Shown here: piece after piece, positions 79-28,585 of the stretch | How the letters are laid out: each line of letters opens with the position of its first letter | How positions within the stretch are numbered: position 1 is the stretch's first letter | Assembly: GCA_001803565.1 (NCBI GenBank) | Contig: MHDQ01000031.1 | Span: 1-34,317 of the forward strand | Reading direction: 5' to 3' | Source of the DNA: Nitrospinae bacterium RIFCSPLOWO2_12_FULL_45_22 | GTDB lineage: Bacteria > 2-12-FULL-45-22 | Length of the DNA stretch: 34,317 nt | Position numbers and translations under genes: made by a program | Notes under the pieces: generated by a model | Told to the model about the DNA's origin: nothing | Databases searched by the model: none | Seen by the model: the letters and a program-made list of their open reading frames with translations, nothing else

Positions 79-1383
79 TTATTTAGTCACTAACTTTTGA
101 TAGAGTTCCAAATATTTGTCTGATATCTGATCCAGAGAATATTTTTCTATAGCCGTTATCCGGGAATTTTTACCAATCCTTTCTGCCAGCTCTTTATCCT
201 CGGTCAACAATAATATGGATTCTATAATTTGTTGAGGGTCTTTATATCGGATCAAAAGGCCATTTTCTAAATGTTCCAAGGCATCTTTAGCTCCCCCCAC
301 AGTAGTAGCAATTATTGGTAGCCCTGTAGCCATAGCTTCTAAAAATGCGTTAGACATTCCTTCAGACTGTGATGGGAGGATAAAGATATCACTGGCATGT
401 AAGTAGGGCGAAACATCTTTGATTTCTCCCGTAAATATTACACTCTCCTTTAATCCATTATCTTCTACCATTCTTTTAAGATAAGCAGCCTGGTTATCCT
501 CACGACCTATTAATACTAATAATAGATCGGGCTTTATCTTTATCAATTCTTTCCAGGCTTCTAATAGGGTATCGAGACCTCTTTTATGTCTCAAGGAACC
601 AATAAAACAGACCATCTCTTTTATGGGTAGGGACAGTTGTCTTTTGAATTCGTTCATCTTTTGTCTATCAGCTTGAGGGAATCTATTTAAATCTATTCCG
701 TTGGAGATGGATTTCAACTTGTCAGCCGGGAAGCCCAGTTCTAAGAGTTTTTCTCTGATTTCGCTATTTATACAGATGAAAATATCAACGGAATTTCTAA
801 GCATTTTTAGATAGAGTTTATGGAGAAAATATCTTCTAAGAACCTCAAAACAAAAGGAATCTGTAAGTTTCATAATAACCTTTTTCTTAAATCTCTTAGC
901 CATCCAGACCGTTACTATGGAAAAAGGCCTCGCCATAATATGACAATGAACAATATCAATATCCCGGCCTCTAAATAGGAAGAAGAAACTGATTAGAACA
1001 GTGAGGACTAAAAATTGACAACATTCCTGGATACAAAGATATAGCTGATAAAGTTTATAATACAGCGGCTTTTTCTGAGAAGATCCATTATTAATATGAA
1101 AGTTATCAAAAAGGGATGAGTAGGCATATTCAGATAGTTTAAATTTCTGCCGAAAAAATTTGCTGAAAGGTAATTTTATGAATTCTAAAATCCTGAATTT
1201 GCGGTAAACTGGTATACCATCAATATACTCAAACCCTCGTAAGCCTTTCCAACGTCGAGTAATCACACAAACATTTATCCCTTTAGTTTTAATCTTTTGG
1301 CTGAGCTGGTGGGCTTGTCTCTCAGCCCCACCAATCAGGGGATGGAAGAATTCTATAACCATAGCTACCCTGACCTTCTTCAC
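79..1383 (-). CDS. Glycosyltransferase family 4 (GT-B fold)
   Basis: N-terminal 'FHPLIGGAERQ', 'ISNGID', 'FIGSLRHKRGLDTL' and GT4 signature 'DIFILPSQSEGMSNAFLEAMATGLPII' (E-x7-E). The ORF track runs to 1428, overlapping the upstream gene; the GTG at 1383 follows an AGGGGG RBS-like run and is the more likely start. Confidence 0.93.
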   Translation of the reverse strand: MKKVRVAMVIEFFHPLIGGAERQAHQLSQKIKTKGINVCVITRRWKGLRGFEYIDGIPVYRKFRILEFIKLPFSKFFRQKFKLSEYAYSSLFDNFHINNGSSQKKPLYYKLYQLYLCIQECCQFLVLTVLISFFFLFRGRDIDIVHCHIMARPFSIVTVWMAKRFKKKVIMKLTDSFCFEVLRRYFLHKLYLKMLRNSVDIFICINSEIREKLLELGFPADKLKSISNGIDLNRFPQADRQKMNEFKRQLSLPIKEMVCFIGSLRHKRGLDTLLEAWKELIKIKPDLLLVLIGREDNQAAYLKRMVEDNGLKESVIFTGEIKDVSPYLHASDIFILPSQSEGMSNAFLEAMATGLPIIATTVGGAKDALEHLENGLLIRYKDPQQIIESILLLTEDKELAERIGKNSRITAIEKYSLDQISDKYLELYQKLVTK

Positions 1384-1399
1384 TACAGCTTCAACCCCC

Positions 1400-2674
1400 T
1401 TATTCTTTGCGAGCAACAATGATAGCACTACTGGATAGATTTCTTAACCATGTTCGTGAGAAACTATTTTTTAGCTTCAGAAATTGATTGATCCGCTTGG
1501 GTAGAATAGTTACACCTATCTGTTCCTCGATTTTAAATCCGGTCCTTTCTAGTTCTTGGGTAATAGAGAATAAATTTAAAGGTCTTAAAGGCCCTTCATT
1601 GGTTATATATGAATCTTTCTCAAGTAAGGTATTTTTAACCAGATAGTTAATGCCCGAGGAGCTAAAAAAGTTCCAGAGACTTAATATCAACCTACCATTA
1701 TTTTTTAGTACCCTATGTATTTCATGTAGCATTTTTTGGGGATAATGAATTAAATTTAGTTTTTTAAAACAGGTTACAACATCAAAGTAATTGTCTGTAT
1801 ATAAGATTTCGCTCAGTGTCCCAAGCTGAAAATTAATTTTTACCTTCTGCAATCCTAAATAATCTTTTCTCTCCTCCAAAAAATAATAAATATCTTCAGA
1901 AACATCATGAATATATACTTCAGATAAGGCTTTTCTCTTCAGAATCTCAAGAATATGATTTCCCGAAAAGCTGAGAATGTCTAGTAACACACTATTTACC
2001 TGGATATATTTTAGAGATATCTCAATTTCCTTATAAAACTCTGCTTCGGCAGATAGATTCTCAAAAAATTCTTCAGAAGGAGAAGTTGCTCTAATACCCT
2101 TACTCCTATAGTCCAATATTGCTTCTGGGTTCCATAAGTGGAAAGAAGGAAATCTTTTTTCCTTTTTTTTTGGGTAAGAATTGAAATGAATGATCTCATT
2201 TAAAGATCGGCGCTGAGGAGGAACAGGCTGTTTTTTGGGATAACCTAAAGCCACGGCGCTAACAATAAGAAAACTTTCAGGGACATTTAGGATCTTATGC
2301 AATATCCTTCGTTCACCACACGCAGCTATCCAAACACTGCCAAGTCCTTCCTCGTAGGCCACAAGAAGCATATTCTGGATAGCCGCGGCCGCACTCTGGA
2401 TATTGGCAAAATATTCTTTGTTAATATCTTTAGGATACAGCACAAAAATCAGGAGGGGTGCGTTTTGCAAAAAAGAAACGGCCTTAGCCTCTGTTACAAT
2501 CCTTTCCTTAATCCTTTTATCCGTGACCACGATAAATTCCCACAGTTGTTTATTGCAAGCAGAAGGCGCCCACTGGGCGGCATCAATTACCCTCAAAACC
2601 TTCTCCGTCTCTACCTCAACTTTTTCCTGAAAAGTCCTTATACTACGTCGAGATTTAATAGTATCCGTTATCAT
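1400..2674 (-). CDS. Nitroreductase-family domain fused to a class I SAM-methyltransferase-like domain
   Basis: N-half has nitroreductase motifs 'SRRSIRTF', 'APSACNKQLWEF', 'AAIQNMLLVAYEEGLGSVW', 'LGYP'. C-half has 'FDVVTC', 'EIHRVLKNNGRLIL', 'GFKIE' and ends 'IIVARK', all typical of Methyltransf_11-like domains. Confidence 0.88.
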   Translation of the reverse strand: MITDTIKSRRSIRTFQEKVEVETEKVLRVIDAAQWAPSACNKQLWEFIVVTDKRIKERIVTEAKAVSFLQNAPLLIFVLYPKDINKEYFANIQSAAAAIQNMLLVAYEEGLGSVWIAACGERRILHKILNVPESFLIVSAVALGYPKKQPVPPQRRSLNEIIHFNSYPKKKEKRFPSFHLWNPEAILDYRSKGIRATSPSEEFFENLSAEAEFYKEIEISLKYIQVNSVLLDILSFSGNHILEILKRKALSEVYIHDVSEDIYYFLEERKDYLGLQKVKINFQLGTLSEILYTDNYFDVVTCFKKLNLIHYPQKMLHEIHRVLKNNGRLILSLWNFFSSSGINYLVKNTLLEKDSYITNEGPLRPLNLFSITQELERTGFKIEEQIGVTILPKRINQFLKLKNSFSRTWLRNLSSSAIIVARKE

Positions 2675-2677
2675 TCT

Positions 2678-4039
2678 TTACCTGTCTCTTAACAGATTCA
2701 TAAATACGGGATCAGCATATATCCTTCTTTCTTCTAAAAATAGTAAAATCAATTTAAGAAACAGGCTGCAATACCTGGATTCAATGATATTTTCTGTAAC
2801 CTCACCCGTGTAAATATTTACCCGGTTTACATATCCACGAGCTGTATGATGATATTTGATTTGGCCATTAAAAATCTTTATCGCAGCCTCTTTATAAATC
2901 TCTTTGCCCGTTAGTTCATATAATTTCATCAGACTAATGGCAAAATCTGTTTCATCATCAAAATAGCTCTCCTCTGGTGTTTCGGTTGTAGGAAGCAACC
3001 CGGTCTCCTTTGATTGCCTGGACAGATAAAACTCAGCAATCCTTTCAGCAGTCTTTATATACCTTCCATCGCCGGTAGACCAGGTATAATCACAGCAAAA
3101 ATCTACAACAGCATAAGACTTAGAAGTTAGCGGCCCCCGAACAAACCGATCAGGGCTTTCAATTATTGTCCACTGATAAACCCCTCCATTTTCATCAATA
3201 AAATATTTGGTCACTCCATCAAACCAGTTTATCAAGGCATGGTTGAGTGGGGGTTCATGAGAAAGACTAAATAAGGCCAAAACCGCAGCCGCCATGCAAT
3301 AATTATCTTTAGTAAGATAGGCTGTCCTATGCGGATTCTTATTCCCTGACCAGTTTTTGGGTATTAGTTTGCTGGCAAAGATCTGGCTAGGAAAAAGCCC
3401 GGTTTCCCGGAAAAATTCTGAATCTAACCAAGGGTTTAATAATTGATTGGCCTTATCTAGATATTTCCTATGACCCGTTAGCCGATAAAGATCAATCAAC
3501 TGCTCAATAAATATCCCATTGGTGGGTTTAGCCACGGGGAGTTTATATTTTACTCTGGGGTAATAAACACAAGCTAGGTTATTTTTGGTAAAAAACAATG
3601 CATAGATCTTATCTATCATAAAATCAATAAAATCTAATAATCCTTGATCCCTTTTAATCTCATAACATTCAATTAAGCCTAATAAAAGGTCAGAGTATTC
3701 GAAGCTCAGAGTGGAGTATCCCAGGATGAGGCGCCTTAAGCGATGCTTTAGAGTAACCCCAGGCACCTCCCCCAATTCATAAAGGATGATATTCCCTTTT
3801 TCAAAAAAATCCTGCGCCAAATTAATGTGCCTTTCCACATAATCACCCTTACCACACCAGAGAAAAAAGGGGAGATAATCACCTAAGTCTGTCAAGATGT
3901 TCTGCGAAGAAAGGGGTTTACCGGTTAGGGCATCGATTTTAAAGAAAGGGAAACCCTCAGTGCTTGAATAGTCATGCTCAAACCAATTAATTATCTCATC
4001 TCTGCATTGAACCAGTAAGGGCTTATCTATTCCATCCAT
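2678..4039 (-). CDS. Uncharacterised six-hairpin (alpha/alpha)6-barrel protein (AGE-epimerase / glycosidase-like superfamily)
   Basis: Recurrent helix-hairpin motif: 'LYRLTGHRKYLDKA', 'YTWSTGDGRYIKTA', 'LYELTGKEIYKEAA'. No signal peptide or TM segment evident. Exact family not assignable by eye. Confidence 0.65.
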   Translation of the reverse strand: MDGIDKPLLVQCRDEIINWFEHDYSSTEGFPFFKIDALTGKPLSSQNILTDLGDYLPFFLWCGKGDYVERHINLAQDFFEKGNIILYELGEVPGVTLKHRLRRLILGYSTLSFEYSDLLLGLIECYEIKRDQGLLDFIDFMIDKIYALFFTKNNLACVYYPRVKYKLPVAKPTNGIFIEQLIDLYRLTGHRKYLDKANQLLNPWLDSEFFRETGLFPSQIFASKLIPKNWSGNKNPHRTAYLTKDNYCMAAAVLALFSLSHEPPLNHALINWFDGVTKYFIDENGGVYQWTIIESPDRFVRGPLTSKSYAVVDFCCDYTWSTGDGRYIKTAERIAEFYLSRQSKETGLLPTTETPEESYFDDETDFAISLMKLYELTGKEIYKEAAIKIFNGQIKYHHTARGYVNRVNIYTGEVTENIIESRYCSLFLKLILLFLEERRIYADPVFMNLLRDR

Positions 4040-4042
4040 AAG

Positions 4043-5605
4043 TTAGGCATTTGTACTTAAAGATTTAGAGAAAGAAAGCAGTCTTTTTTTTACAAAGTTA
4101 GATATAGTATTTTTGAATATCCTCCGAAGGAATTTAGAATGAATTATTCTAGTGAGTAACACTATAAAGATTAATGATAAATAAAACCTCGCTAATTTAC
4201 TCTTTCTTTTCTGAACTAAAAAATCTATAAAATTAGTAGGTATAATGCCTATTATATTGTCTACAGCATAACCACGCATACAATAAATCAAGGTATTTAA
4301 ATATAGGTTATGCCTTTTTAAGAATAAGTGCCTGAGGTCATCATAATAATCTAGATTGGAACCTGAATCCTTTATCCCTTGAATTATCTTATCTTTTAAG
4401 GCGCGATTATATAGTTCTGTGCCCGGGAAAAAAACCAGATTAAATATCTCCAAAAAAAAGGGCTTAGGTATTTTTCTAATCAATTGGATAGTCTCTATTA
4501 GATCGTTATCGGTTTCATAAGGATTGGATATTATGAATTGATAGAAAGGTAAATCCATTTCACCATGGTATTTATTTAATATGGACGTTGCTTTTATTAC
4601 CACCTCAGTAGACTGCAAGCGTTTATATACATTTCTATTGAAAGATTCACTGCCGGTTTGTATACCCATAATGATTCTATTTAATTTGGCCTTTAATAAT
4701 AATTCGAGCTTATCTTCCTGAACATCTCCTGGATGAACGTTACACTGGAAGGGCATGTCAATTTTATCTCTATATTCCTCAACGAACATTTCCAATTCTT
4801 CCATATCTCTTAAAAAGAATGAATCATCGCTTATCCACAACTGACGTGCGAACGGGAATTTATCTTTTAATTCTATTATCTCTTTTAGCACCAGGCTCAG
4901 GTTTCTTTTTCTAATGATCTTACCTTCATTTTTATACAAATCATTTAAAAACCGGTTAGCACAAAAAGCACAACTATAGGGGCAGCCTCGTGCAGTAATA
5001 ATTAATATCGAACCAGTATATATTTGATCAGGATTATTTCTAAAATACTCTTTTCCCTCGAAAAATCTTTCGTTTTTAAGAATAATTTGGGTATCCAGGT
5101 CATAATCAGCAAAGGGATAATTATCTAAATTCCCTGTTAAAGGTCGAAGGCTATTTCTAATTACTTTCCCGTTGGTCCTGAACCAAAAATTCTGGGTATC
5201 TAAATAATCCTTGGAGCTACTCATCTTTTCCACAAGTTCTAAAACAGCTTCTTCTCCTTCACCAAGGCACACCATATCAGCATATTTTAAGCAATCTTCA
5301 GGACAGATAGTCGCATGCACTCCTCCCCAGATTATAGGTTTAGCAATATATTGTTTTATATATTTGATAATCTGGATCCCGCGTTGATAGGAAAATGCCA
5401 TAGAAGATATACCTATTAGATCTGAATCTTTAACCAAAGAAAACAAATCTTTGAGGACGCTCTTAGGGTAATTCTTAAAATTTGTTTCCTCGGTAGGCAT
5501 AAAAACCAGTTGCGTACTATGGCCTTTTGATTTCAGGTAAGAAGAAATCGATCTCATGCCATGACTAATGATGGTATTATCGATAGAGATTAATGTTATT
5601 TTCAT
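4043..5605 (-). CDS. Cobalamin-binding radical SAM protein
   Basis: B12-binding domain ('IGISSM', 'WGGVHAT', 'GEGE'), CxxxCxxC 'RGCPYSCAFC', 'DDSF', 'GIQTGS', 'FPGTELY'. The track start at 5632 lies inside an inverted repeat, so ATG 5605 (MKITLI) is preferred. Confidence 0.92.
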   Translation of the reverse strand: MKITLISIDNTIISHGMRSISSYLKSKGHSTQLVFMPTEETNFKNYPKSVLKDLFSLVKDSDLIGISSMAFSYQRGIQIIKYIKQYIAKPIIWGGVHATICPEDCLKYADMVCLGEGEEAVLELVEKMSSSKDYLDTQNFWFRTNGKVIRNSLRPLTGNLDNYPFADYDLDTQIILKNERFFEGKEYFRNNPDQIYTGSILIITARGCPYSCAFCANRFLNDLYKNEGKIIRKRNLSLVLKEIIELKDKFPFARQLWISDDSFFLRDMEELEMFVEEYRDKIDMPFQCNVHPGDVQEDKLELLLKAKLNRIIMGIQTGSESFNRNVYKRLQSTEVVIKATSILNKYHGEMDLPFYQFIISNPYETDNDLIETIQLIRKIPKPFFLEIFNLVFFPGTELYNRALKDKIIQGIKDSGSNLDYYDDLRHLFLKRHNLYLNTLIYCMRGYAVDNIIGIIPTNFIDFLVQKRKSKLARFYLSLIFIVLLTRIIHSKFLRRIFKNTISNFVKKRLLSFSKSLSTNA

Positions 5606-5625
5606 CCTAGTTCCCCGAATATCTT

Positions 5626-5792
5626 TAACCATTCACCGCAGAGCACGCAGAGAAAACATAGAAAAATTACTCTTGAAACTTATGTACTAATTGTCTGATA
5701 CCATCCTTGGGCACTGTGACATTGAAGTTGATTAATAAGCCCACATTATGTCCCATCTCAGCGTTTTCTGCGCTCTTCGCGTTGAACGGTTA
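5626..5792. repeat. Imperfect ~35-bp inverted repeat pair flanking the GxxExxY remnant
   Basis: Left arm TAACCATTCACCGCAGAGCACGCAGAGAAAACATAG (5626-5661). Reverse complement of right arm (5757-5792) is TAACCGTTCAACGCGAAGAGCGCAGAAAACGCTGAG. CGCAGAG-like sub-repeats are present. Confidence 0.8.
5667..5756 (-). pseudogene. Remnant of a GxxExxY-family (PD-(D/E)XK nuclease-like) gene, C-terminal 29 aa only
   Basis: Hand translation MGHNVGLLINFNVTVPKDGIRQLVHKFQE* matches the characteristic GxxExxY C-terminus GLLINFNV..LKDGI.R.V and is bracketed by inverted repeats. Confidence 0.8.
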
Positions 5793-5804: not shown

Positions 5805-7307
5805 TCAAAATCGGAAAATAGGGATCCCGATCATTTTATTAAAAATATCCCGATCTCTTCGCTCAAAAGTCTTATGGAGATAGCTAACGGAAAAATAACT
5901 TAAAATCCCTACCAAAATAACCAGGATTAAGCTGTATACATCTACAATATATTGCCTGGCGAAGAGGAGAACCATCACCATAATACCACTGTTTATAGCC
6001 ATTTTGAGGAAAGTACCCCAGGGAAATTTTATATCGATATATCTTTTAGTCAGTATAAATTGCAAGACGGCCTTAAAGACCAATGAAGACCCGGTAGCAA
6101 AAGCCACACCCGCAATCCCAAAGTATCTGACTAAAATTATATCCATTATCAGATTATATAAGATGAAGACCCTGCTATATAGCCCGATTTGGGGTTTCTC
6201 CAAAATTTGCCAGATGAGGCCAACAGAAAAGGCAATGGCATTAATCCCATAGACTATCATGAACATAATAAAAATTGGTAAAGTTTCTCTATACTTAGGT
6301 ACTATATAGGTTATCATTTCACTACCGAGGAATACTACTCCTGCAGTCAAAGGGAATAGAAAAAAGGCTATAAATTTATTTAATAATTGGAACATATAAC
6401 ATAATTCTGCCTGGTCATTATTCTGGGTGTATCTTCTGATAAAAATGGGAGTTATTACTGAGTCGGCGACCTTTGCCGGAGTCCAATTAATAATGCGAAA
6501 GGACATTAGGGCAGCAAAAGAATAAAGCCCCACCGCCTTGGGACCCAAAAAATTACTTATTATATAAATATCAATAGGTATCTCATAGCCCATATAGCTT
6601 AGTTCATTAAAATAGCTTAACAAACCATATTTGAAGACTCTTTGGATAGAATCTCCTTTTTTTGACTGACTGGGTAATAGAAACACATAGGCGCGAATGA
6701 CTAATAAATATAGAACAAATGTAATCAAATTAACCAAAAGGGCCGCCCATATCAACCCTTTAAGCCCATAACCCTGTCGCAGCGCAAAGTAATATAGCCC
6801 TCCCTGGAGTATAGAGTATATAAACAACATGAGGTTTTCATATCCTTGAAGAAGAAGAGAGTTTAAAATATATCTTAAGCTTCTAATCTGGATGGCAAGG
6901 ATAATAACAAAGAGAAAAATAGAGAAGTAATCTATTATTGGAGGGGCCTTTAAAAAAAGGGCAATAGGGCTAATACAAAACCAGATCAAAACTACGCAGA
7001 TGGTGAAAGCTACAGTTTGACATAATAGGCCATAAAAAATAAGTTTTTTGAGGATAGTATAATCTTTATTTTGATAATACTCCGGAACATACCGTTCTAT
7101 AACAGAGGGTATTCCAAAAGAGACGAACATGGAAATTAATGTTAAAGCAGCAAATAACAAATTATAAATCCCATACTCCTCAACCACCAATCTATTTAAA
7201 ATATAAATGGCAATGAAAAGAGAAACTATGGCAGAGATACTTCTCCCCACATAATTAAAAATAGTATTTCTAAATCCGTGATTGTATAAATCTTCCTGTG
7301 CAAACAC
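5805..7307 (-). CDS. wzx: Oligosaccharide flippase (Wzx / MOP superfamily)
   Basis: 500 aa with roughly 12-14 hydrophobic segments; 'NTIFNYVGR', 'EEYGIY', 'FGIPSVIERYV', 'FLGPKAVGLYS', 'FGIAGVAFAT'. Confidence 0.9.
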   Translation of the reverse strand: MFAQEDLYNHGFRNTIFNYVGRSISAIVSLFIAIYILNRLVVEEYGIYNLLFAALTLISMFVSFGIPSVIERYVPEYYQNKDYTILKKLIFYGLLCQTVAFTICVVLIWFCISPIALFLKAPPIIDYFSIFLFVIILAIQIRSLRYILNSLLLQGYENLMLFIYSILQGGLYYFALRQGYGLKGLIWAALLVNLITFVLYLLVIRAYVFLLPSQSKKGDSIQRVFKYGLLSYFNELSYMGYEIPIDIYIISNFLGPKAVGLYSFAALMSFRIINWTPAKVADSVITPIFIRRYTQNNDQAELCYMFQLLNKFIAFFLFPLTAGVVFLGSEMITYIVPKYRETLPIFIMFMIVYGINAIAFSVGLIWQILEKPQIGLYSRVFILYNLIMDIILVRYFGIAGVAFATGSSLVFKAVLQFILTKRYIDIKFPWGTFLKMAINSGIMVMVLLFARQYIVDVYSLILVILVGILSYFSVSYLHKTFERRDRDIFNKMIGIPIFRF

Positions 7308-7331: not shown

Positions 7332-8861
7332 TTACTTTAGGCTTAACATCCTCTCCTTAATTTGGGACAATACACCTGCTATTTTAACCTCAAACAGAAA
7401 ACTCCAAAGATTCAATTTTTTCCGCGATTCAAAAATAGCTTTCAACCACCACGATCTTAGGGGAAGTTCTCTATAACTCCTTAATATACCCTTCTTAAAG
7501 GCAAAATTTATATAGAAATAAAACTTCGGTTTCTTTAACCAGGGAAACCTATTCAGGCCTAAATATCCACTGGTGTCTTCAAGATCATTATTCGCCCACT
7601 CTCTCAAGGAATCGGGTGGTGTAAACCCTTTATTTATGCATTCCTGGTAGAGGGCTGATCCGGGATAAGGGCGAAATATTTGCGGGCCTAAGATAAAGTC
7701 CTTGGGATTAAACCTCACTAATTTCCCAATAAAGTTTAAGGTTTTCAAGGTATCTTCTGGTTCTTCCCCAGGCAAACCCATCATAAAAGAGTACGCAATA
7801 ATTATGCCATATCTTTTGCATAGAGTAGCCGCATGTCGGACCTGGTTGAGATTAATACCTTTTTTTAAGAGATTTATGATCTTTTCTGAACCAGATTCCA
7901 CACCAATGCTTATCCTTGCACATCCTAAGTTGGCCATTCTCTGGACAAGCGTCTCCGATAAGTAACCTTCATGGAAAAAATCGGCCCGCGCAGTACAGTA
8001 CCAGGTAATTTTGTATCTCCTCTCCTCCAGCCCATCTAAAAATCTAATAAATCTTTTCTTATCCAGGAGAAAATTATCATCCCTAAATACGATATGCCTT
8101 ACCTGATACTTGTTTATAACCATATCAATTTCGTCCAATATCCTATCAGCGGTCTTCCCCCTATACCTCTTAAGAGATTGAGCAAGACTGTTATTTATAC
8201 AAAAAGTACAGTCATAAGGACAACCAACACCAGTATGTAGTATGATACTCTTTTGTTGCTCCCCAAAAAAAAACCTGGTACCGCCAAAATCCCTTGTCAG
8301 ATAACTATCCATGGGTAATAAATCAAAGTAAGGGAAGGGGAATTTATTTATATCCGCCAATTCATTCTGAAGATTTAAAAGGAATTTCCCATCTTTCTTA
8401 TACCCCAACCCGGGTAATGAGGGGATTTGATGGCTTTGTCTAAGAGATTTGGTCAATTCCAGGCAGCTATACTCCCCTTCACCTATTACTACTAAATCCG
8501 CTAACGGATCACTGCAGGTCTGTTGGGGGAATAGAGTTGCATGGATACCTCCCCAGACTAAAAGGGTATTTGGCGACATTTTCCTGATATATTCCGCAAT
8601 ATCTATTCCCGAACTAACCTGGGAAGTCATGGCTGATATTCCTGCATATAGGGGCTTTTTAAGCAAATAATTCTCAATATCTTTCAAATAATCTTCACTA
8701 ATCGAAGCATCAATGATCTTCACCTCAAAACCTTCCTCATGCAGGACTGTGCCTATAGATAATAATCCTAAAGGAGGGGATATCTCATGAAAATTCCTTT
8801 GATAATCCCATCCCTTGAACAGCTTTGGTGCAATTAATAGGATCTTATTATTGCTACTCAT
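7332..8861 (-). CDS. Cobalamin-binding radical SAM protein
   Basis: 'PPLGLLSI', 'GISAMT', 'WGGIHAT', 'GEGE', CxxxCxxC 'GCPYDCTFC', 'DDNF', 'GVESGS', 'MGLPGE', 'PYPGSALY'. Confidence 0.93.
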   Translation of the reverse strand: MSSNNKILLIAPKLFKGWDYQRNFHEISPPLGLLSIGTVLHEEGFEVKIIDASISEDYLKDIENYLLKKPLYAGISAMTSQVSSGIDIAEYIRKMSPNTLLVWGGIHATLFPQQTCSDPLADLVVIGEGEYSCLELTKSLRQSHQIPSLPGLGYKKDGKFLLNLQNELADINKFPFPYFDLLPMDSYLTRDFGGTRFFFGEQQKSIILHTGVGCPYDCTFCINNSLAQSLKRYRGKTADRILDEIDMVINKYQVRHIVFRDDNFLLDKKRFIRFLDGLEERRYKITWYCTARADFFHEGYLSETLVQRMANLGCARISIGVESGSEKIINLLKKGINLNQVRHAATLCKRYGIIIAYSFMMGLPGEEPEDTLKTLNFIGKLVRFNPKDFILGPQIFRPYPGSALYQECINKGFTPPDSLREWANNDLEDTSGYLGLNRFPWLKKPKFYFYINFAFKKGILRSYRELPLRSWWLKAIFESRKKLNLWSFLFEVKIAGVLSQIKERMLSLK

Positions 8862-10542: not shown

Positions 10543-11913
10543 TCAATCACCTGAAGAAATCTTTTCTGCAATAATGCAGGTTGAAGAGGATATCAAGGGC
10601 AAATTGATTTTTTTGGTTGCTTTGGCCAAAAGAGAGAGGAGGCTTAAAGCAGGTCGAGAAATATGTTTTAATATAGAAAGATTCCGACCATGTCGTTTAA
10701 GATAACCATTCAGTCTTTCTTTATAAACTGTTAATTCCATGGGAAAAAAGAAAAGACTCCTTAATTGAATAGAAAAACTTATCTTTTTAAGCAATTTTTT
10801 TATTTTCAAGGTAGATACAGGTTCAAAAGGGCCTGAACTTAAAAAGGCATCCTCAATCCTGTTGATCTTTAAGAGCTTTTCTATACCCTGATAAAATAGG
10901 CCGTAAAAAGATAGCTTATTTTTGCAGAAAATAATAAGTTTTCCTTCGGGTTTCAATGCCCTTTTCGCTTCAGAAAAGATAGTCTGATTCTTTAGGATAG
11001 GGACTTTTTCCAAAGAAAATAAAAATAAAATCATATCAATAGAAGAACTTTTCAAGGGAAGATAGGCATCACTAACAAAAAAATCCATTTTTGTCGTCTT
11101 GGCGTTGACAAAAATGGCCGCTTCCCTACTCAGTTCCAAGTCAATCAGATGATGACCGGTTAAGGCCGAGGAGAGAGGTCTAAGTAGCGTTCCGTCATAG
11201 CTAAAAACAGACAAAATATGCCCCCTTTTTTTAGGCAAATAGGATTGAACCAATGAAGTAATCTTATTAACCTCTTCTTCGGAATATATTTCATAGTCTT
11301 TTCCGAAATAGCTGGAACGGGACAAAAATTTCTGGTGTTCTCTTATTTCAGAGAGCGTATATTCTGAAGATCTAAGTTTAATAGGGAGAGAAGGGGCACC
11401 TTTTCCATTTTGGAATTCATTAAAATGAACTATATCCCTTATATCTTTTTTAGGAGGGAGTGGAGGATTCTCGGCCGATTCTCCTAGCATTATGATACAT
11501 AGGGGTTTTAAATGATTAGGTACACCTAGGAGTTTAGATACTTCTTCCTCTTTCCCAAAACCTGCCAGCCAGCAAGCCCCTAAGCCTAGTTCACATGTTC
11601 TTAAGAGTATATTCTGGACCGCAGCCGATACTGATTGGATATTGGCATAGTGTTCCTCATTAAAGGTAGCATCATACAGCACTACAATAAGGCAAGGGGC
11701 ATCCATGATTTGCTTTTGAGCCCCTGCCTGTTTGACCATTCTTTCTTTCATAGATTCTTTGTCAACCACTATGAACTGCCAATGCTGTCGGTTAGAGGCA
11801 GAAGGGGCCATGGTTCCGGCTTTTATAATTTCCATAACTATCTCTCTAGGAATGGCCTTGTCCCGAAATTTTCTAATGCTTCTTCTTTTTTCTAACGCCT
11901 CGCTTAACTCCAC
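10543..11913 (-). CDS. Nitroreductase-family domain fused to a class I SAM-methyltransferase-like domain (paralog of 1400-2674)
   Basis: 'KRRSIRKF', 'APSASNRQHWQF', 'YANIQSVSAAVQNILL..LGLGACW'; C-half 'LPLKSSSIDMI', 'EAKRALKPEGKLII', ending 'IIAEK'. Confidence 0.88.
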   Translation of the reverse strand: MELSEALEKRRSIRKFRDKAIPREIVMEIIKAGTMAPSASNRQHWQFIVVDKESMKERMVKQAGAQKQIMDAPCLIVVLYDATFNEEHYANIQSVSAAVQNILLRTCELGLGACWLAGFGKEEEVSKLLGVPNHLKPLCIIMLGESAENPPLPPKKDIRDIVHFNEFQNGKGAPSLPIKLRSSEYTLSEIREHQKFLSRSSYFGKDYEIYSEEEVNKITSLVQSYLPKKRGHILSVFSYDGTLLRPLSSALTGHHLIDLELSREAAIFVNAKTTKMDFFVSDAYLPLKSSSIDMILFLFSLEKVPILKNQTIFSEAKRALKPEGKLIIFCKNKLSFYGLFYQGIEKLLKINRIEDAFLSSGPFEPVSTLKIKKLLKKISFSIQLRSLFFFPMELTVYKERLNGYLKRHGRNLSILKHISRPALSLLSLLAKATKKINLPLISSSTCIIAEKISSGD

Positions 11914-12909: not shown

Positions 12910-14412
12910 TTAGTCTATCCGCAAAATGTAGTTCAGGAAGGGGTTTTGAGCTTCTAGCCTGATCTTTAAAAATCCTAAGGCCCTATCACCATAAAAGATA
13001 GAGTCACTCAGGGCTATTATTCCCAAATCTTCATAAGAAATGGCCCCGGTGCTCGAGATTTTAATACGTGTATTTTGATCCTTAAGGATCAAGGCATTGT
13101 TATTTATCTCAATGCCATAGGGACTTTTATAAGCAAAGAATAGTTCATCTTTTTGGAGTTTAGTATTTACAATTATACAATCTCTCTGAAAGTCATAATG
13201 TCTGTCCCCCGTTTCCTTTGCCGAGAGTAATTTATACTTTAATCCTCTCAGCCTATGAAGGCCCAGAGGGCGAAGAATATCTAGCCACCTCGCGGCCTTT
13301 AAATTGTAATAGCTTGGATCGAAAAAAAACTTCATGCCGTCCCTCGTCCAAAGGGCAAATAATTTGCTATGCTCACTATCAGTAACCACAAGATAACTAT
13401 CCCTTCTAATCACCTTTAGGTTGTTTTGGTCAATCCCCATTTTAGAAGAGTTATATTCATCTCCTAAATCGTATGCTTTTACATGGTCATAGGCCTGGCA
13501 AATTTTATATAGATCAGTACAAAGATGGCGTTCATCAGGCAGATGTTGGATATAGCCAATGCCATTTTGATACCCATCTATCACTTTCTCCAATATGCTA
13601 TTTGCCTGGGGAATTAAAGGACTGAATATTTCAAAGCCATCAAGGATCAACCATCCCAATTGGCGGGTATTGTAAGTTCCACCAAAACTCCCATCCGGAT
13701 AGATCAACTCATTACAATTCGCTATAAACCCTTTAGCGGCCTCTAAAATTTTGGGTTCAGGCATTATCAAATAAAAATTTCCCAAGATGCTAAGGGTCAA
13801 GGACGAATAACCAAGGTCTATACCTTTCCTCTCGGTAAAGAATCCATCTCGGTAGCCTGAGCTTAATACACGATCCAATTTTTCCTGGGAGCAAGCTAAG
13901 AACTTTTCCTCCTTGGTCAACTCATATATTTTTAACAAAGTAAGAGCGGCCATAGACTCCTGGTTGGTCAAGTATTTTTCCCTATTTTTACATAACCACC
14001 GCCCTGCTCTTATTAAATGATTCAGCCAATCTTCTTGTACTCCTATGATATTCATAGAATGAGAAATAGCATAGGTAGAGTAGGCTGTAGCAGCATAAGA
14101 ATGATCATATCTCGTATACTCTGGAAAAGAACCATTCCTATTCTGAATCTTACACCAGAAATCAATCCCAGCCTTAATTCTGAAGATTAGCTCATCTTCT
14201 TTTCTCGATCTGATTCCCTTATCATACACCCAAGCCAGAGAAGCTACGGCCTCCTGCCACCGGGCATTACAAAATTTTTTTTTACCTTGCCAATGAGGAT
14301 AAAAGAAACAGCCCTTGCTCAAACTATTGGCCCCTACATCCTGGAGAGAAAGGAGTCGGGGCCAAGAATCCTTTACCCATTGCAAATATAATTCTTTCCT
14401 CTTTTTCCACAT
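12910..14412 (-). CDS. Uncharacterised protein with an alpha/alpha-toroid N-terminal domain and a probable beta-rich C-terminal domain
   Basis: 'WCKIQNRNGSFPE' and 'IYPDGSFGG' resemble prenyltransferase/QW-type repeats; 'KIYELTKEEKFL' is a hairpin motif. The C-terminal ~170 aa look like short beta strands. Function unknown. Confidence 0.6.
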   Translation of the reverse strand: MWKKRKELYLQWVKDSWPRLLSLQDVGANSLSKGCFFYPHWQGKKKFCNARWQEAVASLAWVYDKGIRSRKEDELIFRIKAGIDFWCKIQNRNGSFPEYTRYDHSYAATAYSTYAISHSMNIIGVQEDWLNHLIRAGRWLCKNREKYLTNQESMAALTLLKIYELTKEEKFLACSQEKLDRVLSSGYRDGFFTERKGIDLGYSSLTLSILGNFYLIMPEPKILEAAKGFIANCNELIYPDGSFGGTYNTRQLGWLILDGFEIFSPLIPQANSILEKVIDGYQNGIGYIQHLPDERHLCTDLYKICQAYDHVKAYDLGDEYNSSKMGIDQNNLKVIRRDSYLVVTDSEHSKLFALWTRDGMKFFFDPSYYNLKAARWLDILRPLGLHRLRGLKYKLLSAKETGDRHYDFQRDCIIVNTKLQKDELFFAYKSPYGIEINNNALILKDQNTRIKISSTGAISYEDLGIIALSDSIFYGDRALGFLKIRLEAQNPFLNYILRID

Positions 14413-19555: not shown

Positions 19556-21442
19556 TTAATCCCCATCAAGGTATTCCCGGCACCACAAGTCAAAGACTAA
19601 TAACATCCAAAGCACCTGATTATGATTTCTCTGGAGATAGCGATGTTCCTCTATCATTTTCTGGATGCCTTTGTAGTTAAAGAGGCCTCGTTCCTTTACG
19701 CGTATTTCGGTGAGAGTATCATGCAGCAGCTCTAATAATTCATTGGTAATCCAATTCTTCATGGGGCAGGAAAACCCTTGCTTCGGTCTATTTATAATCT
19801 CCTGGGGCAATAAATCAGCTACCGCTTTTTTCAATATATACTTACCTTCCCATCTCCTTAACTTCAAATCGGAAGGAATGGAAGCTATGAATTCTACCAG
19901 TTCATGATCCAGGAAAGGAACTCTCACCTCCAGGGAATGAGCCATACTCATCGTATCTACCTTGGCTAACTGTATCCCGTTTAAAGTAGTCATAATATCT
20001 ACATAGAGTTCCCTGTCCAGCCAGTCACCATCTGCTTCCTCAAAGTAAGGAGCGATATCCTGGAAATAGTCACTTCCAGCCAGTTCTCCCTTAAAATAAT
20101 CGGAATAAAGAGCCTCCCGGTCCTCATCGGTTAAAAAAGTTATCCAGCGAAAGTGACCCATCCGGGGAGAGAAACCGTATCCCTCCACGAACTTTTTGAT
20201 TACATTCACCAACCCCCTTTTCCGGGGGCGGGAGGGAAAAAAACTGATCAAGGTACCGCCCAACTGCCGCAGAGGCATGGGAACTTTCTGGTAAAACCTA
20301 TCGATATACTGAGCAAGATACATATCATAACCGGCCAGAAGTTCATCGGCGCCGTCTCCCGAGAGAGCAACGGTAACCGACTCCCGGGCTAATTTCGATA
20401 CCAGGTAAGTAGGGATAGCCGAAGATTCACCCATAGGCTCATCCATGCTGGATATAACCTCTTTCGCTAAATCAACGATATCAGGTTGAACGATCAACCA
20501 ATGATGATCCACACCTAACTGTCTCGATACTAATTGCGAGAATTCCAATTCGCTAAAGGACTTATCCTGGAACCCTATGGAGAAAGTCTTGGTCGGCCTC
20601 CTGACCAATTGGCTCATAAGGGCAACGATAGTGCTGGAGTCAAGCCCCCCGCTCAAGAAGGCGCCTAAAGGGACATCGCTTATCAACCGTCTCCGGACTG
20701 ATTCTTCTAGTCTATGCCGCAGTTCCTCGACATAATATTCCTCTTTTCGCCGGGTAGAGGAATCGAAGCTGAGACGCCAATATCTCTCAACAGATACCTT
20801 TCCTCCCTCTTCTATTGTTAGTAGATGCCCCGGCAACACCTTCTTTATGCTTTTAAACATCGTCCGGGGCCCTGGAAAATACGTAAAGCGAAAGAACCCG
20901 TCCAGGGCCAAGAAATCGAGCTGGCGTTCTATAAATTTATTCTGCAACAGGGATCTCAACTCTGAGCTGAAGACAAATTCATCCTTACCGATGAAATAAT
21001 AGAGGGGTTTAATACCCAGTCTATCCCGGGCTAAGAGGATCCTCTTTCTCGGTTTATCCCAGATGGCAAAGGAGAACATGCCGTTTAATTTATTAACACA
21101 CTCGTCTCCGTAATCCTCATAGAGATGAATGATTACCTCAGTATCGCTCCGGGTAACCAGGCAGTGGCCATTCTCAATTAGCATCTCCCGCAATTCTTTA
21201 TAATTGTATATCTGGCCATTGAAGACAATCCAGACGGTCTGATACTCGTTAGCCATGGGCTGGTGTCCCCCTCCAAGATCGATGATGCTCAGGCGCCGAT
21301 GCCCCAGGCCAACATTATCTTCTATTAGCAGACCCTCTCCATCCGGACCGCGGTGGGCAAGTGCCTTGGTCATTAGTATAATCAACTCCTCTTCTACCGG
21401 ATACTCGGAGTTGAAATTAAATATCCCACAGATGCCGCACAT
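19556..21442 (-). CDS. asnB: Asparagine synthase (glutamine-hydrolysing)-family amidotransferase
   Basis: N-terminal 'MCGICG', 'HRGPD', 'HRRLSIID', 'SDTEV', 'RDRLGIKPLYY', PP-loop 'LSGGLDS', 'SGDGADE', 'EVRVPFLD', 'KQGF'. Context suggests glycan amidation rather than Asn synthesis. Confidence 0.95.
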   Translation of the reverse strand: MCGICGIFNFNSEYPVEEELIILMTKALAHRGPDGEGLLIEDNVGLGHRRLSIIDLGGGHQPMANEYQTVWIVFNGQIYNYKELREMLIENGHCLVTRSDTEVIIHLYEDYGDECVNKLNGMFSFAIWDKPRKRILLARDRLGIKPLYYFIGKDEFVFSSELRSLLQNKFIERQLDFLALDGFFRFTYFPGPRTMFKSIKKVLPGHLLTIEEGGKVSVERYWRLSFDSSTRRKEEYYVEELRHRLEESVRRRLISDVPLGAFLSGGLDSSTIVALMSQLVRRPTKTFSIGFQDKSFSELEFSQLVSRQLGVDHHWLIVQPDIVDLAKEVISSMDEPMGESSAIPTYLVSKLARESVTVALSGDGADELLAGYDMYLAQYIDRFYQKVPMPLRQLGGTLISFFPSRPRKRGLVNVIKKFVEGYGFSPRMGHFRWITFLTDEDREALYSDYFKGELAGSDYFQDIAPYFEEADGDWLDRELYVDIMTTLNGIQLAKVDTMSMAHSLEVRVPFLDHELVEFIASIPSDLKLRRWEGKYILKKAVADLLPQEIINRPKQGFSCPMKNWITNELLELLHDTLTEIRVKERGLFNYKGIQKMIEEHRYLQRNHNQVLWMLLVFDLWCREYLDGD

Positions 21443-26483: not shown

Positions 26484-27206
26484 CTACTTGTTTATCTCTT
26501 TTTTCTCACAAATTAATAGCAACGACATTCCTATAAATGGACTAAACAACCTATCTGACAAAAGCAAAAGGGAAGAAAATTTATTAAAAAATTCCAATAG
26601 GCAGTCTGACAAAATTTCGCGTCTGAGAATTTTCCCATTTACAAACCAGCCGAATATACCAAAGAAGTTACAAAATAACCGCCTTTTGACTGTGAAACCC
26701 GCCGTTTCTATCTTATGCTTCAATTCGCGACAATGGTATCTTCGCCAGTGTCCAACGGATTGATCCAAGGTTCCATATAGCCAATGTAAAGCAGGAACTA
26801 ACAATATCAACCTGCCTGGATTATTTAGCAGAGCATACATGTTCTTCAGTGCCTTTGTATCGTCCTCGATATGTTCTAATACATTGAGACATACTATAGT
26901 ATCAAAGCCGAAGCTAGTTAAATAATTTATGTCATCTTTAGCTATATCTAACCTGATGGCTTTAAAGTTTCTATTATCGGTGAATTTTGACTCTACCTCC
27001 TTTATATAATCTTCTACAATATCAACTGACACCAGTAATTCAGAAGAATCAATTAGGAATGAAGTATAGATACCAATCCCACAGCCTATCTCTAACACCC
27101 TAGATCCAATATCGTCCTTAATCTTATCCCAAAACCACTGATTATGTATGGTAAGCTTATCCAATTTCCTTAAAGTCTCTTGCCCTATCCTTAACGCTTT
27201 ATCCAC
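26484..27206 (-). CDS. Class I SAM-dependent methyltransferase
   Basis: Motif I 'VLEIGCGIG', 'FDTIVCLNVLEHIEDD', 'PGRLILLVPA', 'GHWRRY'. Confidence 0.93.
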   Translation of the reverse strand: MDKALRIGQETLRKLDKLTIHNQWFWDKIKDDIGSRVLEIGCGIGIYTSFLIDSSELLVSVDIVEDYIKEVESKFTDNRNFKAIRLDIAKDDINYLTSFGFDTIVCLNVLEHIEDDTKALKNMYALLNNPGRLILLVPALHWLYGTLDQSVGHWRRYHCRELKHKIETAGFTVKRRLFCNFFGIFGWFVNGKILRREILSDCLLEFFNKFSSLLLLSDRLFSPFIGMSLLLICEKKEINK

Positions 27207-28585
27207 GGATTACTCCAAATCCTCTTAAAAGCTGAAATGTTCATTTTCACTTCTGTCCAAGAAAAAAACCTTAATAGTCTTCTCCATAAATATGGCAGCC
27301 GCAGGTAGAATCTCCGGTAAGCATCTTGATAATATCTCAATACCATTTCGCTGCTCACCGTTGGTAGATTCATAACTGGATGGGACAAATCGTACTTTTC
27401 CCAATCGAGAGTATTCAAATATCCGCACTCCTTTGCCCAATTGAACATCTTAGTGCCTGGATATGGCGTGGTAATATTAAATACCACAACGTCCGGACTT
27501 GTTTTGATAGCAAATTGAATAGTCTTCTCCATGGTTTCCAAGGTCTCGCCGGGGTTTCCCAACATGAAAGTGGCACGAACATCCATTCCTAGTTTTTTGG
27601 TAAGGGCAATTGCCTCTTCTGCTCCGTTCAAGTTTATCCGCTTATTAATATTTTTCAGTATTCCCTCGTCTGCAGATTCAATCCCAAACATGACCTGATG
27701 ACAACCGGAATCCTTCATTATCCTTAGCATATCCTTATCTACATAATCGACACGAGCAAAACAGGACCAGGTTATATCAATATTTTCAGAGAGAAGGAGG
27801 GTACAAAATTCCTTTACCTCGTCCTTAAAAACGGTGAAGGTATCATCGTAAAACTGGATCTCCTTTATTCCATAGTTATCTTTTAGCAGTCTTATTTCAT
27901 CAACTAACCTACGCGGTGAAATTCTCCGTATTTTTTCCCCTAGTACTCCTCCGTAGCAAAACGTACATCTACCGGGGCATCCCCTGGTGGCAACCATGCT
28001 GATTGCTGGTAGTCTTTTGTACGCACCGAGAGTCGGATAGTATCTATGCATAGGCAATAAGTGGTACGCAGGATATGGTAAGCTATCGAGGTTTTCGATA
28101 AGTGCCCTTGCTTCATTATGAATATAGACTCCATTCGATTTATAAGAGAGTCCGGGGATCTCTCGTATATCATCACCCCTTGCTAATTCCCAGAAAGTAT
28201 ATTCTCCCTCTCCCCGGATAACAAAATCTACACTCTCATTACTTAAGACCTCATCGGGCAAGACCGTCGGATGGACTCCTCCCAGTACTATCTTGGTCTG
28301 GGGTAGAAATCTCTTACACAACCTTGCTATTTCCATGGTATTATTTATTATGCTGGTGGTAGCTGTTATTCCAATAAACCATGGTTGTTTATCATTAATA
28401 TGTTGATAAATTTTATCCAATCCGATTCTTTCAGCATGAACATCCAAAATCTCTACCTTGAAAAAGCGCTCCTCCAAAAAAGAAGCTATCTGAGCTAATC
28501 CAAGCGGTGGCATGCAACTGGCAATATCCTTCCAGATGTTCCCTTCTCTTTTTACCCACGGCGGATTAATCAGTAGAATTGACAT
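27191..28585 (-). CDS. Cobalamin-binding radical SAM protein
   Basis: 'LLINPP', 'PPLGLAQIA', 'GITATT', 'GGVHPT', 'GEGE', CxxxCxxC 'RGCPGRCTFC', 'DDTF', 'GIESA', 'TPYPGT'. Confidence 0.94.
   Translation of the reverse strand: MSILLINPPWVKREGNIWKDIASCMPPLGLAQIASFLEERFFKVEILDVHAERIGLDKIYQHINDKQPWFIGITATTSIINNTMEIARLCKRFLPQTKIVLGGVHPTVLPDEVLSNESVDFVIRGEGEYTFWELARGDDIREIPGLSYKSNGVYIHNEARALIENLDSLPYPAYHLLPMHRYYPTLGAYKRLPAISMVATRGCPGRCTFCYGGVLGEKIRRISPRRLVDEIRLLKDNYGIKEIQFYDDTFTVFKDEVKEFCTLLLSENIDITWSCFARVDYVDKDMLRIMKDSGCHQVMFGIESADEGILKNINKRINLNGAEEAIALTKKLGMDVRATFMLGNPGETLETMEKTIQFAIKTSPDVVVFNITTPYPGTKMFNWAKECGYLNTLDWEKYDLSHPVMNLPTVSSEMVLRYYQDAYRRFYLRLPYLWRRLLRFFSWTEVKMNISAFKRIWSNPWIKR

Follow-up and report, generated by a model that had tools for sequence, protein, structure and literature searches.

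The nitroreductases closest in structure to the protein examined here, those of the HUB subgroup (4dn2, 3e39, 3gfa and 8cqt), have a minimal flavin mononucleotide (FMN) fold with R-R-S-x-R and P-S-x-x-N-x-Q motifs. A 34,317-nucleotide stretch of Nitrospinae bacterium RIFCSPLOWO2_12_FULL_45_22 (assembly GCA_001803565.1, contig MHDQ01000031.1, positions 1 to 34,317; hereafter the window) encodes a protein that shares this fold and these motifs (Z 21–23) and that, unlike the HUB structures listed, none of which has a methyltransferase domain, continues into a class I S-adenosylmethionine (SAM) methyltransferase fold. This fusion is a widespread, undescribed enzyme of two parts that occurs in uncultured archaea and bacteria: existing names are automatic only, such as ‘nitroreductase/SAM-dependent methyltransferase’, and the literature searched, whose coverage left out most subscription journals, contains no description of the fusion or of its pairing with an alpha/alpha-toroid protein.

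Several described systems resemble one part or another of this arrangement. What appears by analogy to be the nearest precedent is HM3342 of Shewanella vesiculosa, an NfnB homologue of a capsule locus whose loss, according to passages of the report, alters a capsule property and not polymerisation (bioRxiv 2023.04.25.538355); both are nitroreductase genes in polysaccharide loci, a likeness of setting and not of compared sequence, and the same passages mention no methyltransferase domain or toroid partner for HM3342. Reduction of an activated C=C bond by FMNH2 in biosynthesis is shown, in passages of the respective sources, for the nitroreductase-fold C-domain of FbiB, the dehydro-F420-0 reductase (bioRxiv 10.1101/470336), and described for the enone reductase CLA-ER (PMC13365329), whose structure 4qlx is among the matches to our nitroreductase domain. 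FbiB is also a fusion; however, both enzymes differ from the present family in substrates and partners, and model its mechanism rather than its membership. The GH154/DUF2264 enzyme BcGDH (9nwf, 9o4u) converts terminal glucuronate to a 4,5-unsaturated uronate, with R285, Y289 and Y229 proposed as catalytic, and is catabolic and paired with GH88 in the passages describing it (PMC12269599); a true homologue is fused to related nitroreductases. The rRNA methyltransferases RlmI, RlmO and RlmKL have a similarly bulky motif I within class I enzymes; unlike them, the fusion lacks RNA-binding domains and has its best fold matches in TM1389, CmoM and UbiG, the motif alone being alike. BluB and MMACHC have the same superfamily fold as the nitroreductase domain, but the genomic coupling of the fusion points elsewhere.

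Architecture and extent of the fusion

The window carries two copies of the fusion, the first of which was dissected into domains and motifs:

1400..2674, minus strand: nitroreductase–methyltransferase-fold fusion, copy 1 (P0001), an intact open reading frame (ORF) of 424 amino acids
2174..2674, minus strand: FMN nitroreductase domain, residues 1–167, with R9 and R13 (FMN phosphate), W115 and R155 conserved
2546..2572, minus strand: WAPSACNKQ turn, residues 35–43, carrying Cys40
1403..2155, minus strand: class I SAM methyltransferase fold, residues 174–424, with D232, G238, D257 and G361-P362 conserved
2108..2134, minus strand: W181–Y189 helix, N-terminal in the methyltransferase domain
1961..1984, minus strand: motif I variant LDILSFSG, residues 231–238, of RlmI-like bulky form
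10543..11913, minus strand: fusion copy 2, 456 amino acids, 29% identical to copy 1

An earlier note, made from the sequence alone, had proposed an intact FMN nitroreductase domain followed by a methyltransferase-like one, and both halves bear this out. Copy 1 matches PF00881 (Nitroreductase; E 1.3e-29, 103.9 bits against a cut-off of 23.5) and PF08241 (Methyltransf_11; E 4.9e-12, 46.8 bits against 21.2). In an AlphaFold2 model (alignment of 75 rows; pLDDT 92.8, pTM 0.90), residues 1–169 superpose on nitroreductases of HUB-like type (4dn2, Z 22.6, rmsd 1.8, 166 aligned), while residues 174–424 match class I methyltransferases (2avn, that is TM1389, Z 22.4, rmsd 3.2, 224 aligned; CmoM 8joz, Z 22.3; UbiG 4kdr, Z 20.9). 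The strings WNPEAILDYRSKGIRATSP and LLDILSFSGNH, quoted in the note as linker and motif I, are both present in copy 1. The first, however, is no linker but the methyltransferase domain's own N-terminal helix: residues 174/182 onward align within methyltransferase structures, W181 is kept in 173/185 fusions, and in split loci the separate methyltransferases open with the same helix. Hydrophobic moments, examined as a test for a membrane tail, gave nothing distinctive.

The fusion is real, and no product of chance or assembly, since a word-index search returned 84 proteins at E<=1e-10 (query included) and the best 150 matches of a profile search of 50%-identity representatives are almost wholly full-length fusions. 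At least 185 of the 207 proteins pooled from both searches are full-length fusions, counted as such with an N-profile above 100 bits, a C-profile above 40 bits and a length above 370 amino acids. An alignment took in 73 of the 84 matches plus the two window copies, leaving aside the query itself and ten short or differently built matches. The record titles name as carriers uncultured archaea (Woesearchaeota, Aenigmatarchaeota, Methanoperedens, Hydrothermarchaeum) and uncultured bacteria (Chloroflexota, Planctomycetota, Nitrospirota and the candidate phyla radiation, CPR), some of them possibly misbinned. Two loci with identical fusion proteins and gene order (L001 and L005) are titled as an archaeon and a Polyangiaceae bacterium, probably through misbinning. 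Among the matches listed from a plasmid collection there were only generic nitroreductases of <40% identity. A recent tandem duplication as the origin of copies 1 and 2 is unsupported, given their low identity and their placement apart, not as sisters, in the tree.

The FMN site is strongly conserved across the fusions (R9 in 182/185, R13 in 183/185, P37 in 184/185 and N41 in 183/185), and Cys40 is kept in 171/185. Judged by sequence models, the domain belongs to the nitroreductase superfamily and is not a BluB, FbiB or NfsA: no NCBIfam model exceeded its cut-off for copy 1, the BluB model TIGR02476 giving 65.4 bits against 150, the FbiB C-terminal model TIGR03553 43.9 against 249.55, and the NfsA model PRK10765 58.9 against 223. 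The turn that carries Cys40 lies over the flavin re-face, and many PnbA enzymes have a Cys in it, according to passages of the review PMC6017928; by this comparison we infer that Cys40 is a candidate proton donor.

Motif I is non-canonical, as the earlier note observed, yet this is no decay of copy 1. None of the 185 fusions has GxGxG at the site (one regex match falls upstream of the motif), and the loop follows a pattern of its own: position 234 is bulky, 235 is Pro/Ser, 236 is Tyr/Phe (149/185) and 238 is Gly (159/185), with position 232 acidic in 132/185 and an acidic residue at the end of beta-2 (D/E257) in 152/185; copy 1 has both D257 and G238, and copy 2 reads LSVFSYDG. The deviation is a family trait under selection. 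At this site, enzymes of the RlmI/RlmO family read D/N-x-F/Y-S/T-Y-x-G, as in the solved loops of 3c0k (VLNCFSYTG), 1wxw (LDVFSYAG), 4dmg (LDVYSYVG) and, alike, 2as0, to which fusion members such as LDVYSYDG come close. Because these methyltransferases carry the same kind of loop, the variant is no proof of a dead domain; it appears compatible with SAM use, and an absent GxGxG is no marker of a dead methyltransferase.

Coupling of the fusion to a toroid partner

Each window copy has a toroid protein nearby:

2678..4039, minus strand: soluble alpha/alpha-toroid, partner of copy 1 (W2678), 3 bp upstream of it
12910..14412, minus strand: alpha/alpha-toroid with a C-terminal domain, partner of copy 2 (W12910), heparinase II/III- and ulvan-lyase-like by its Atlas matches

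W2678 looks like GH47, GH76, GH88 and AGE-epimerase proteins (Atlas look-alikes: GH88, GH47, AGE), and its homologues adjoin a nitroreductase gene in 11 GTDB loci. W12910, separated from copy 2 by one gene for a family 2 glycosyltransferase (GT2), matches PF25840 clusters in the Atlas (TM 0.76) and has no significant PDB sequence match; N150, Y202 and R250 are invariant in 15/15 members of its family. The two toroids beside the two fusions are the sole strong toroid matches in their own genome. A complex prediction with two copies of residues 1–200, FMN and W2678 (score 0.02, mark 0.32) was used neither for nor against binding.

Gene neighbourhoods were examined around the best 80 of 242 relatives from a GTDB scan whose seed patterns included the Cys motif, some of them on short contigs. 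These loci comprise 64 fused and 16 stand-alone nitroreductases; L062 was assigned to the fused set by hand, and L031, probably a broken fusion, was counted as stand-alone. The recurrent adjacent gene encodes a soluble alpha/alpha-toroid of one of four families, U32 (homologues of W2678), U21 (homologues of W12910), U95 and U44, the set also taking in three single ORFs from cross-profile matches; HHalign ties U21 to U95, U32 and U44 with probabilities of 96.5, 95.3 and 95.1. With loci de-replicated at 70% identity, 19/23 fused and 6/11 stand-alone groups have a toroid no further than 1.2 kb away (raw counts 31/64 and 11/16 loci). Glycan genes are present in 20/23 fused groups; the glycan-locus setting implied in the note is supported.

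Where the toroid is not adjacent, it is found elsewhere. All five genomes checked whose fusion lacks an adjacent toroid hold a single U44-type toroid at another place and none of U21 type; two such unlinked loci were fetched and are rich in family 4 glycosyltransferases (GT4). Across a Planctomycetota class (n=151; fusion at E<=1e-60, toroid at E<=1e-30) we found both in 64 genomes, the fusion only in 0, the toroid only in 18 and neither in 69; the two are mostly unlinked, with five pairs side by side on one contig. In a Chloroflexota class (n=98) the corresponding counts are 47, 1 (at a contig end), 20 and 30, and five of the toroid-only genomes, re-checked, have no member of the nitroreductase clade; the genomes in both classes are kin and often incomplete, and these counts are not independent, so that Fisher values computed from them exaggerate the association. 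The coupling is thus shown to be one-way: the fusion implies the toroid, while the toroid also occurs alone. The single-copy U44-type toroid, a large unnamed family without a Pfam entry, stands amid GT4 runs in 82/151 genomes of the Planctomycetota class and 67/98 of the Chloroflexota class (L092–L096, L097–L100, L103–L109).

Two other arrangements separate the parts. In a split form (L032, L077, L079 and L080), a GT2, a nitroreductase of ~218 amino acids, a methyltransferase with a non-canonical motif I, a radical SAM enzyme that depends on B12 (B12-rSAM) and an LPG-synthase-like flippase occur together, with a deacetylase in addition in L032 and L077; the set presumably echoes the hopanoid HpnI/K/J/L genes. 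Five toroid-free loci, mostly of CPR, have a stand-alone nitroreductase, and four of these a separate orthologous methyltransferase with motif NIWSRTG or DICSRTG. Conversely, none of five genomes with a stand-alone nitroreductase and a toroid has a split-type methyltransferase at E<=1e-20, which makes the SAM domain look accessory.

Possible chemistry and its rivals

Coupled redox chemistry and methylation on a sugar, the second of two options in the earlier note, is supported. That the fusion takes part in glycan tailoring coupled to the toroid is very probable. A more specific version, in which fusion and toroid eliminate, reduce and methylate a surface-glycan sugar, is our best explanation, if one held at somewhat less than even confidence; its order of steps, elimination before reduction, we hold just as tentatively. 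The toroid would take the C5 proton of a uronate and eliminate the C4 substituent, giving a 4,5-unsaturated sugar, or would alternatively hydrate or epimerise through the same enolate. FMNH2 of the nitroreductase dimer would then give a hydride to the C=C bond, with Cys40 as possible proton donor, to yield a uronate that is 4-deoxy or inverted. Through its RlmI-like motif the C-terminal domain would bind SAM, and it would methylate the same sugar, either as a carboxyl ester (a form that would activate both steps) or as an O- or N-methyl group; an NDP-sugar or a lipid-linked glycan is the candidate substrate.

A sister architecture lends this scheme a parallel. Eight proteins, one of them seen on up to 176 contigs, join a related nitroreductase (152–163 bits on the clade profile) to PF10022/DUF2264, the latter scoring 282.5 bits against a cut-off of 25 in P0081. 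Two structures of beta-D-glucuronate dehydratase, 9o4u and 9nwf, match the fused DUF2264 domain (E ~1e-55), and R463, Y467 and Y413, the equivalents of R285, Y289 and Y229 of BcGDH, are kept in 8/8 fused domains. In three of six metagenome loci with this fusion, a gene for a UDP-glucose/GDP-mannose dehydrogenase lies upstream. Such a row, with a source of uronate, then dehydratase and flavin enzyme, suggests that dehydration precedes reduction of the C=C bond, and a nitroreductase::GH154-type fusion beside a UDP-sugar dehydrogenase is a compact pathway in its own right. The fusions in question are L110:3545-5302, L111:447-2195 and L113:2449-4107 (proteins P0081 and P0222–P0231); in L110 a deaminase and a histidine phosphatase are encoded as well.

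A number of findings weigh against this explanation. The nitroreductases of the sister architecture are placed in the clade with weak support (FastTree 0.72) and have no methyltransferase domain, and the window toroids W2678 and W12910 are not GH154 members by Pfam or HHalign and have no DUF2264 match. Compared by HHalign with profiles of the W12910, W2678 and U44 types, the dehydratase fusion scored <2%, and with the U95 type 26%. Chained weak alignments do place R250 of W12910 on the dehydratase arginine, which is only suggestive, and four residues after it W12910 has a Trp where 12/15 relatives have Tyr. The U44 type aligns weakly with a PL5 lyase (E 0.02), with Gln where the lyase has His. 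UDP-sugar dehydrogenases occur in just 5/34 locus groups, the background rate of toroid genes in glycan loci is known from the window’s own genome only, and the kinship among the genomes counted lessens the force of their co-occurrence. The nitroreductase can do without a toroid, since toroid-free split and stand-alone loci exist: for five such loci, three of the five toroid profiles found none in the genome. As for Cys40, the PSACN turn also occurs in the unrelated solved nitroreductase BT_1316 (8cqt) and copy 2 has Ser at this position, so by sequence the residue is a mark of the clade and not unique to it.

The same components could also run in the opposite direction, with the FMN domain acting as an oxidase or dehydrogenase, as in AlbA, to make a keto- or ene-sugar to which the toroid adds water or another nucleophile, or which it epimerises, before the SAM domain caps the product. 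All the evidence of fusion–toroid coupling fits this equally well, the AlbA-type C-C oxidases 8uc3 and 9exv are among the structural matches, and W2678 resembles GH88 and AGE enzymes. We consider it unlikely nonetheless: genomes with a toroid and no nitroreductase number 18 and 20 in the two classes while the reverse is almost never seen, as would be expected if the toroid acted first, and the GH154-type domain of the sister architecture does not depend on an oxidation beforehand, as far as the passages on BcGDH go (PMC12269599). Nor need the C-terminal domain methylate. It might bind SAM or a nucleoside, present the substrate, or perform other SAM chemistry such as aminocarboxypropyl transfer or electrostatic catalysis, all compatible with the redox step of our best explanation; the uniform lack of GxGxG, the incomplete conservation of the acidic positions 232 and 257, and the toroid-bearing genomes without a split-type methyltransferase speak for it. 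The earlier suggestion that the fold is a binding module rather than a catalyst, which had been drawn from the motif, is nevertheless weakened by the solved RlmI-family enzymes with a like motif at the same place, and the domain, hallmarks included, is retained as a separate gene and is also found, as the split type, fused to a stand-alone-type nitroreductase (P0148). A domain that does not methylate is therefore a minority view, to which we give about one chance in a handful or slightly better, while active methyl transfer seems, on these comparisons, somewhat the more probable state.

The first option of the note, a dedicated reductase or reactivator for neighbouring B12-rSAM enzymes, is not supported: a B12-rSAM gene is adjacent in 0/64 fused loci and in 47/64 there is none in the fetched stretch. 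In this model flavin reductase and SAM domain would reduce and re-methylate the cobalamin, or reduce the cluster, of the B12-rSAM enzymes of the locus, and several findings favour it. The window has four such genes; one lies in the fetched stretch in 12/23 fused and 8/11 stand-alone groups (adjacent in 0/23 and 2/11), and directly downstream in 2/6 dehydratase-fusion loci; and of the 18 genomes of the Chloroflexota class with a B12-rSAM at E<=1e-40, 16 are among the 48 with a fusion. MMACHC, according to passages of PMC9464900, shows that a nitroreductase-type fold can reduce cobalamin; it is absent among the structural matches listed for the fusion model. In 5/5 toroid-free loci with a stand-alone nitroreductase a B12-rSAM lies 0–1.6 kb away, and the toroid-free split form suits reactivation better than tailoring. 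Set against this, the window’s own genome (3.67 Mb) has 28 B12-rSAM genes of the window’s type on 19 contigs and only two fusions, each with its own toroid; 32/48 Chloroflexota fusion genomes have no B12-rSAM at E<=1e-40 (47/48 have a toroid), the five re-checked holding one distant B12/rSAM gene each, elsewhere in the genome; and the BluB and FbiB models score far below their cut-offs. We regard a reactivating role as improbable. A generalist HUB nitroreductase for detoxification or flavin recycling, carried along on mobile glycan islands with no coupled role, is less probable by far: the closest solved structures are uncharacterised HUB-like proteins, the gene lies outside the toroid’s glycan locus in many Planctomycetota and Chloroflexota genomes, and its spread over archaea and bacteria is patchy, but it is kept with an unlinked toroid in 64/64 and 47/48 genomes, has conserved residues in both domains and recurs fused to a dehydratase domain. 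A lactyl-ether route (enolpyruvyl reduction, an idea from Klebsiella cps) was set aside, as no pyruvyltransferase was found among the neighbours scanned.

Deoxy-sugar biosynthesis has pyridoxal phosphate/Fe-S and radical-SAM routes, distinct from a flavin/lyase one. Our boldest proposal, and a doubtful one, is that deoxy or inverted uronates are built biosynthetically by a lyase-fold dehydratase of a kind otherwise familiar from polysaccharide breakdown, an FMN nitroreductase that reduces the 4,5-alkene and an RlmI-like methyltransferase that esterifies or methylates. If true, it would add such a route, make the module common to DPANN and Methanoperedens-type archaea, CPR and about half of the two Planctomycetota and Chloroflexota classes, predict a sugar so far unreported from these lineages and inform on the envelope chemistry of abundant uncultured groups; if wrong, an uncharacterised but common domain fusion remains. 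Passages of PMC3210612 contain no 4-deoxy-hexuronate example, and those of PMC7685785 no mention of nitroreductase or heparinase. In polysaccharide loci, genes for nitroreductases and for heparinase-like proteins turn up repeatedly with no reaction assigned to them, and the fusion family ties the two together.

The surrounding glycan locus

Copy 1 is set in a 33-kb glycan locus whose genes all lie on one strand and, by Pfam, encode GT2, GT4 and GT-C glycosyltransferases, a flippase, a Wzy-like ligase, AsnB, GFO and epimerase proteins and five radical-SAM enzymes, four with a B12 domain:

79..1428, minus strand: GT4 glycosyltransferase, directly downstream of fusion copy 1 (Pfam)
4043..5632, minus strand: B12-radical SAM gene lying upstream of copy 1's toroid partner (Pfam, NCBIfam)
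5805..7307, minus strand: Wzx-type flippase, context for a lipid-linked glycan pathway (Pfam)
19556..21442, minus strand: AsnB-type amidotransferase (Pfam, NCBIfam)
7332-8861, 27191-28585 and 32050-33507: three further B12-radical SAM genes

Genes of the AsnB type amidate uronates. The three UDP-sugar dehydrogenases of the genome, whose phylum consists of two GTDB genomes, all lie away from the locus. A scan for promoters and terminators gave about as many as chance predicts (43 where 47.3 are expected, and 16 where 13.3 are).

Some smaller observations concern relatives and the edge of the locus. P0078 and P0083, nitroreductases of ~330 amino acids with an N-terminal extension and a PSS/ACNRQ turn, may represent the type that cultured bacteria have in polysaccharide loci, and P0170 is a triple fusion that includes a second, canonical methyltransferase resembling window 26484-27206. 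The top-scoring model for the B12-rSAM gene at 27191-28585 is HpnJ (E 7e-79), below its cut-off. Just upstream of the glycan locus, an open-ended frame at the contig end (33711-34316, plus strand) matches the transposase model DDE_Tnp_1_4 under its cut-off (E 1.8e-6), and the last B12-rSAM gene, at 32050-33507, lies within a low-GC stretch (0.29–0.33).

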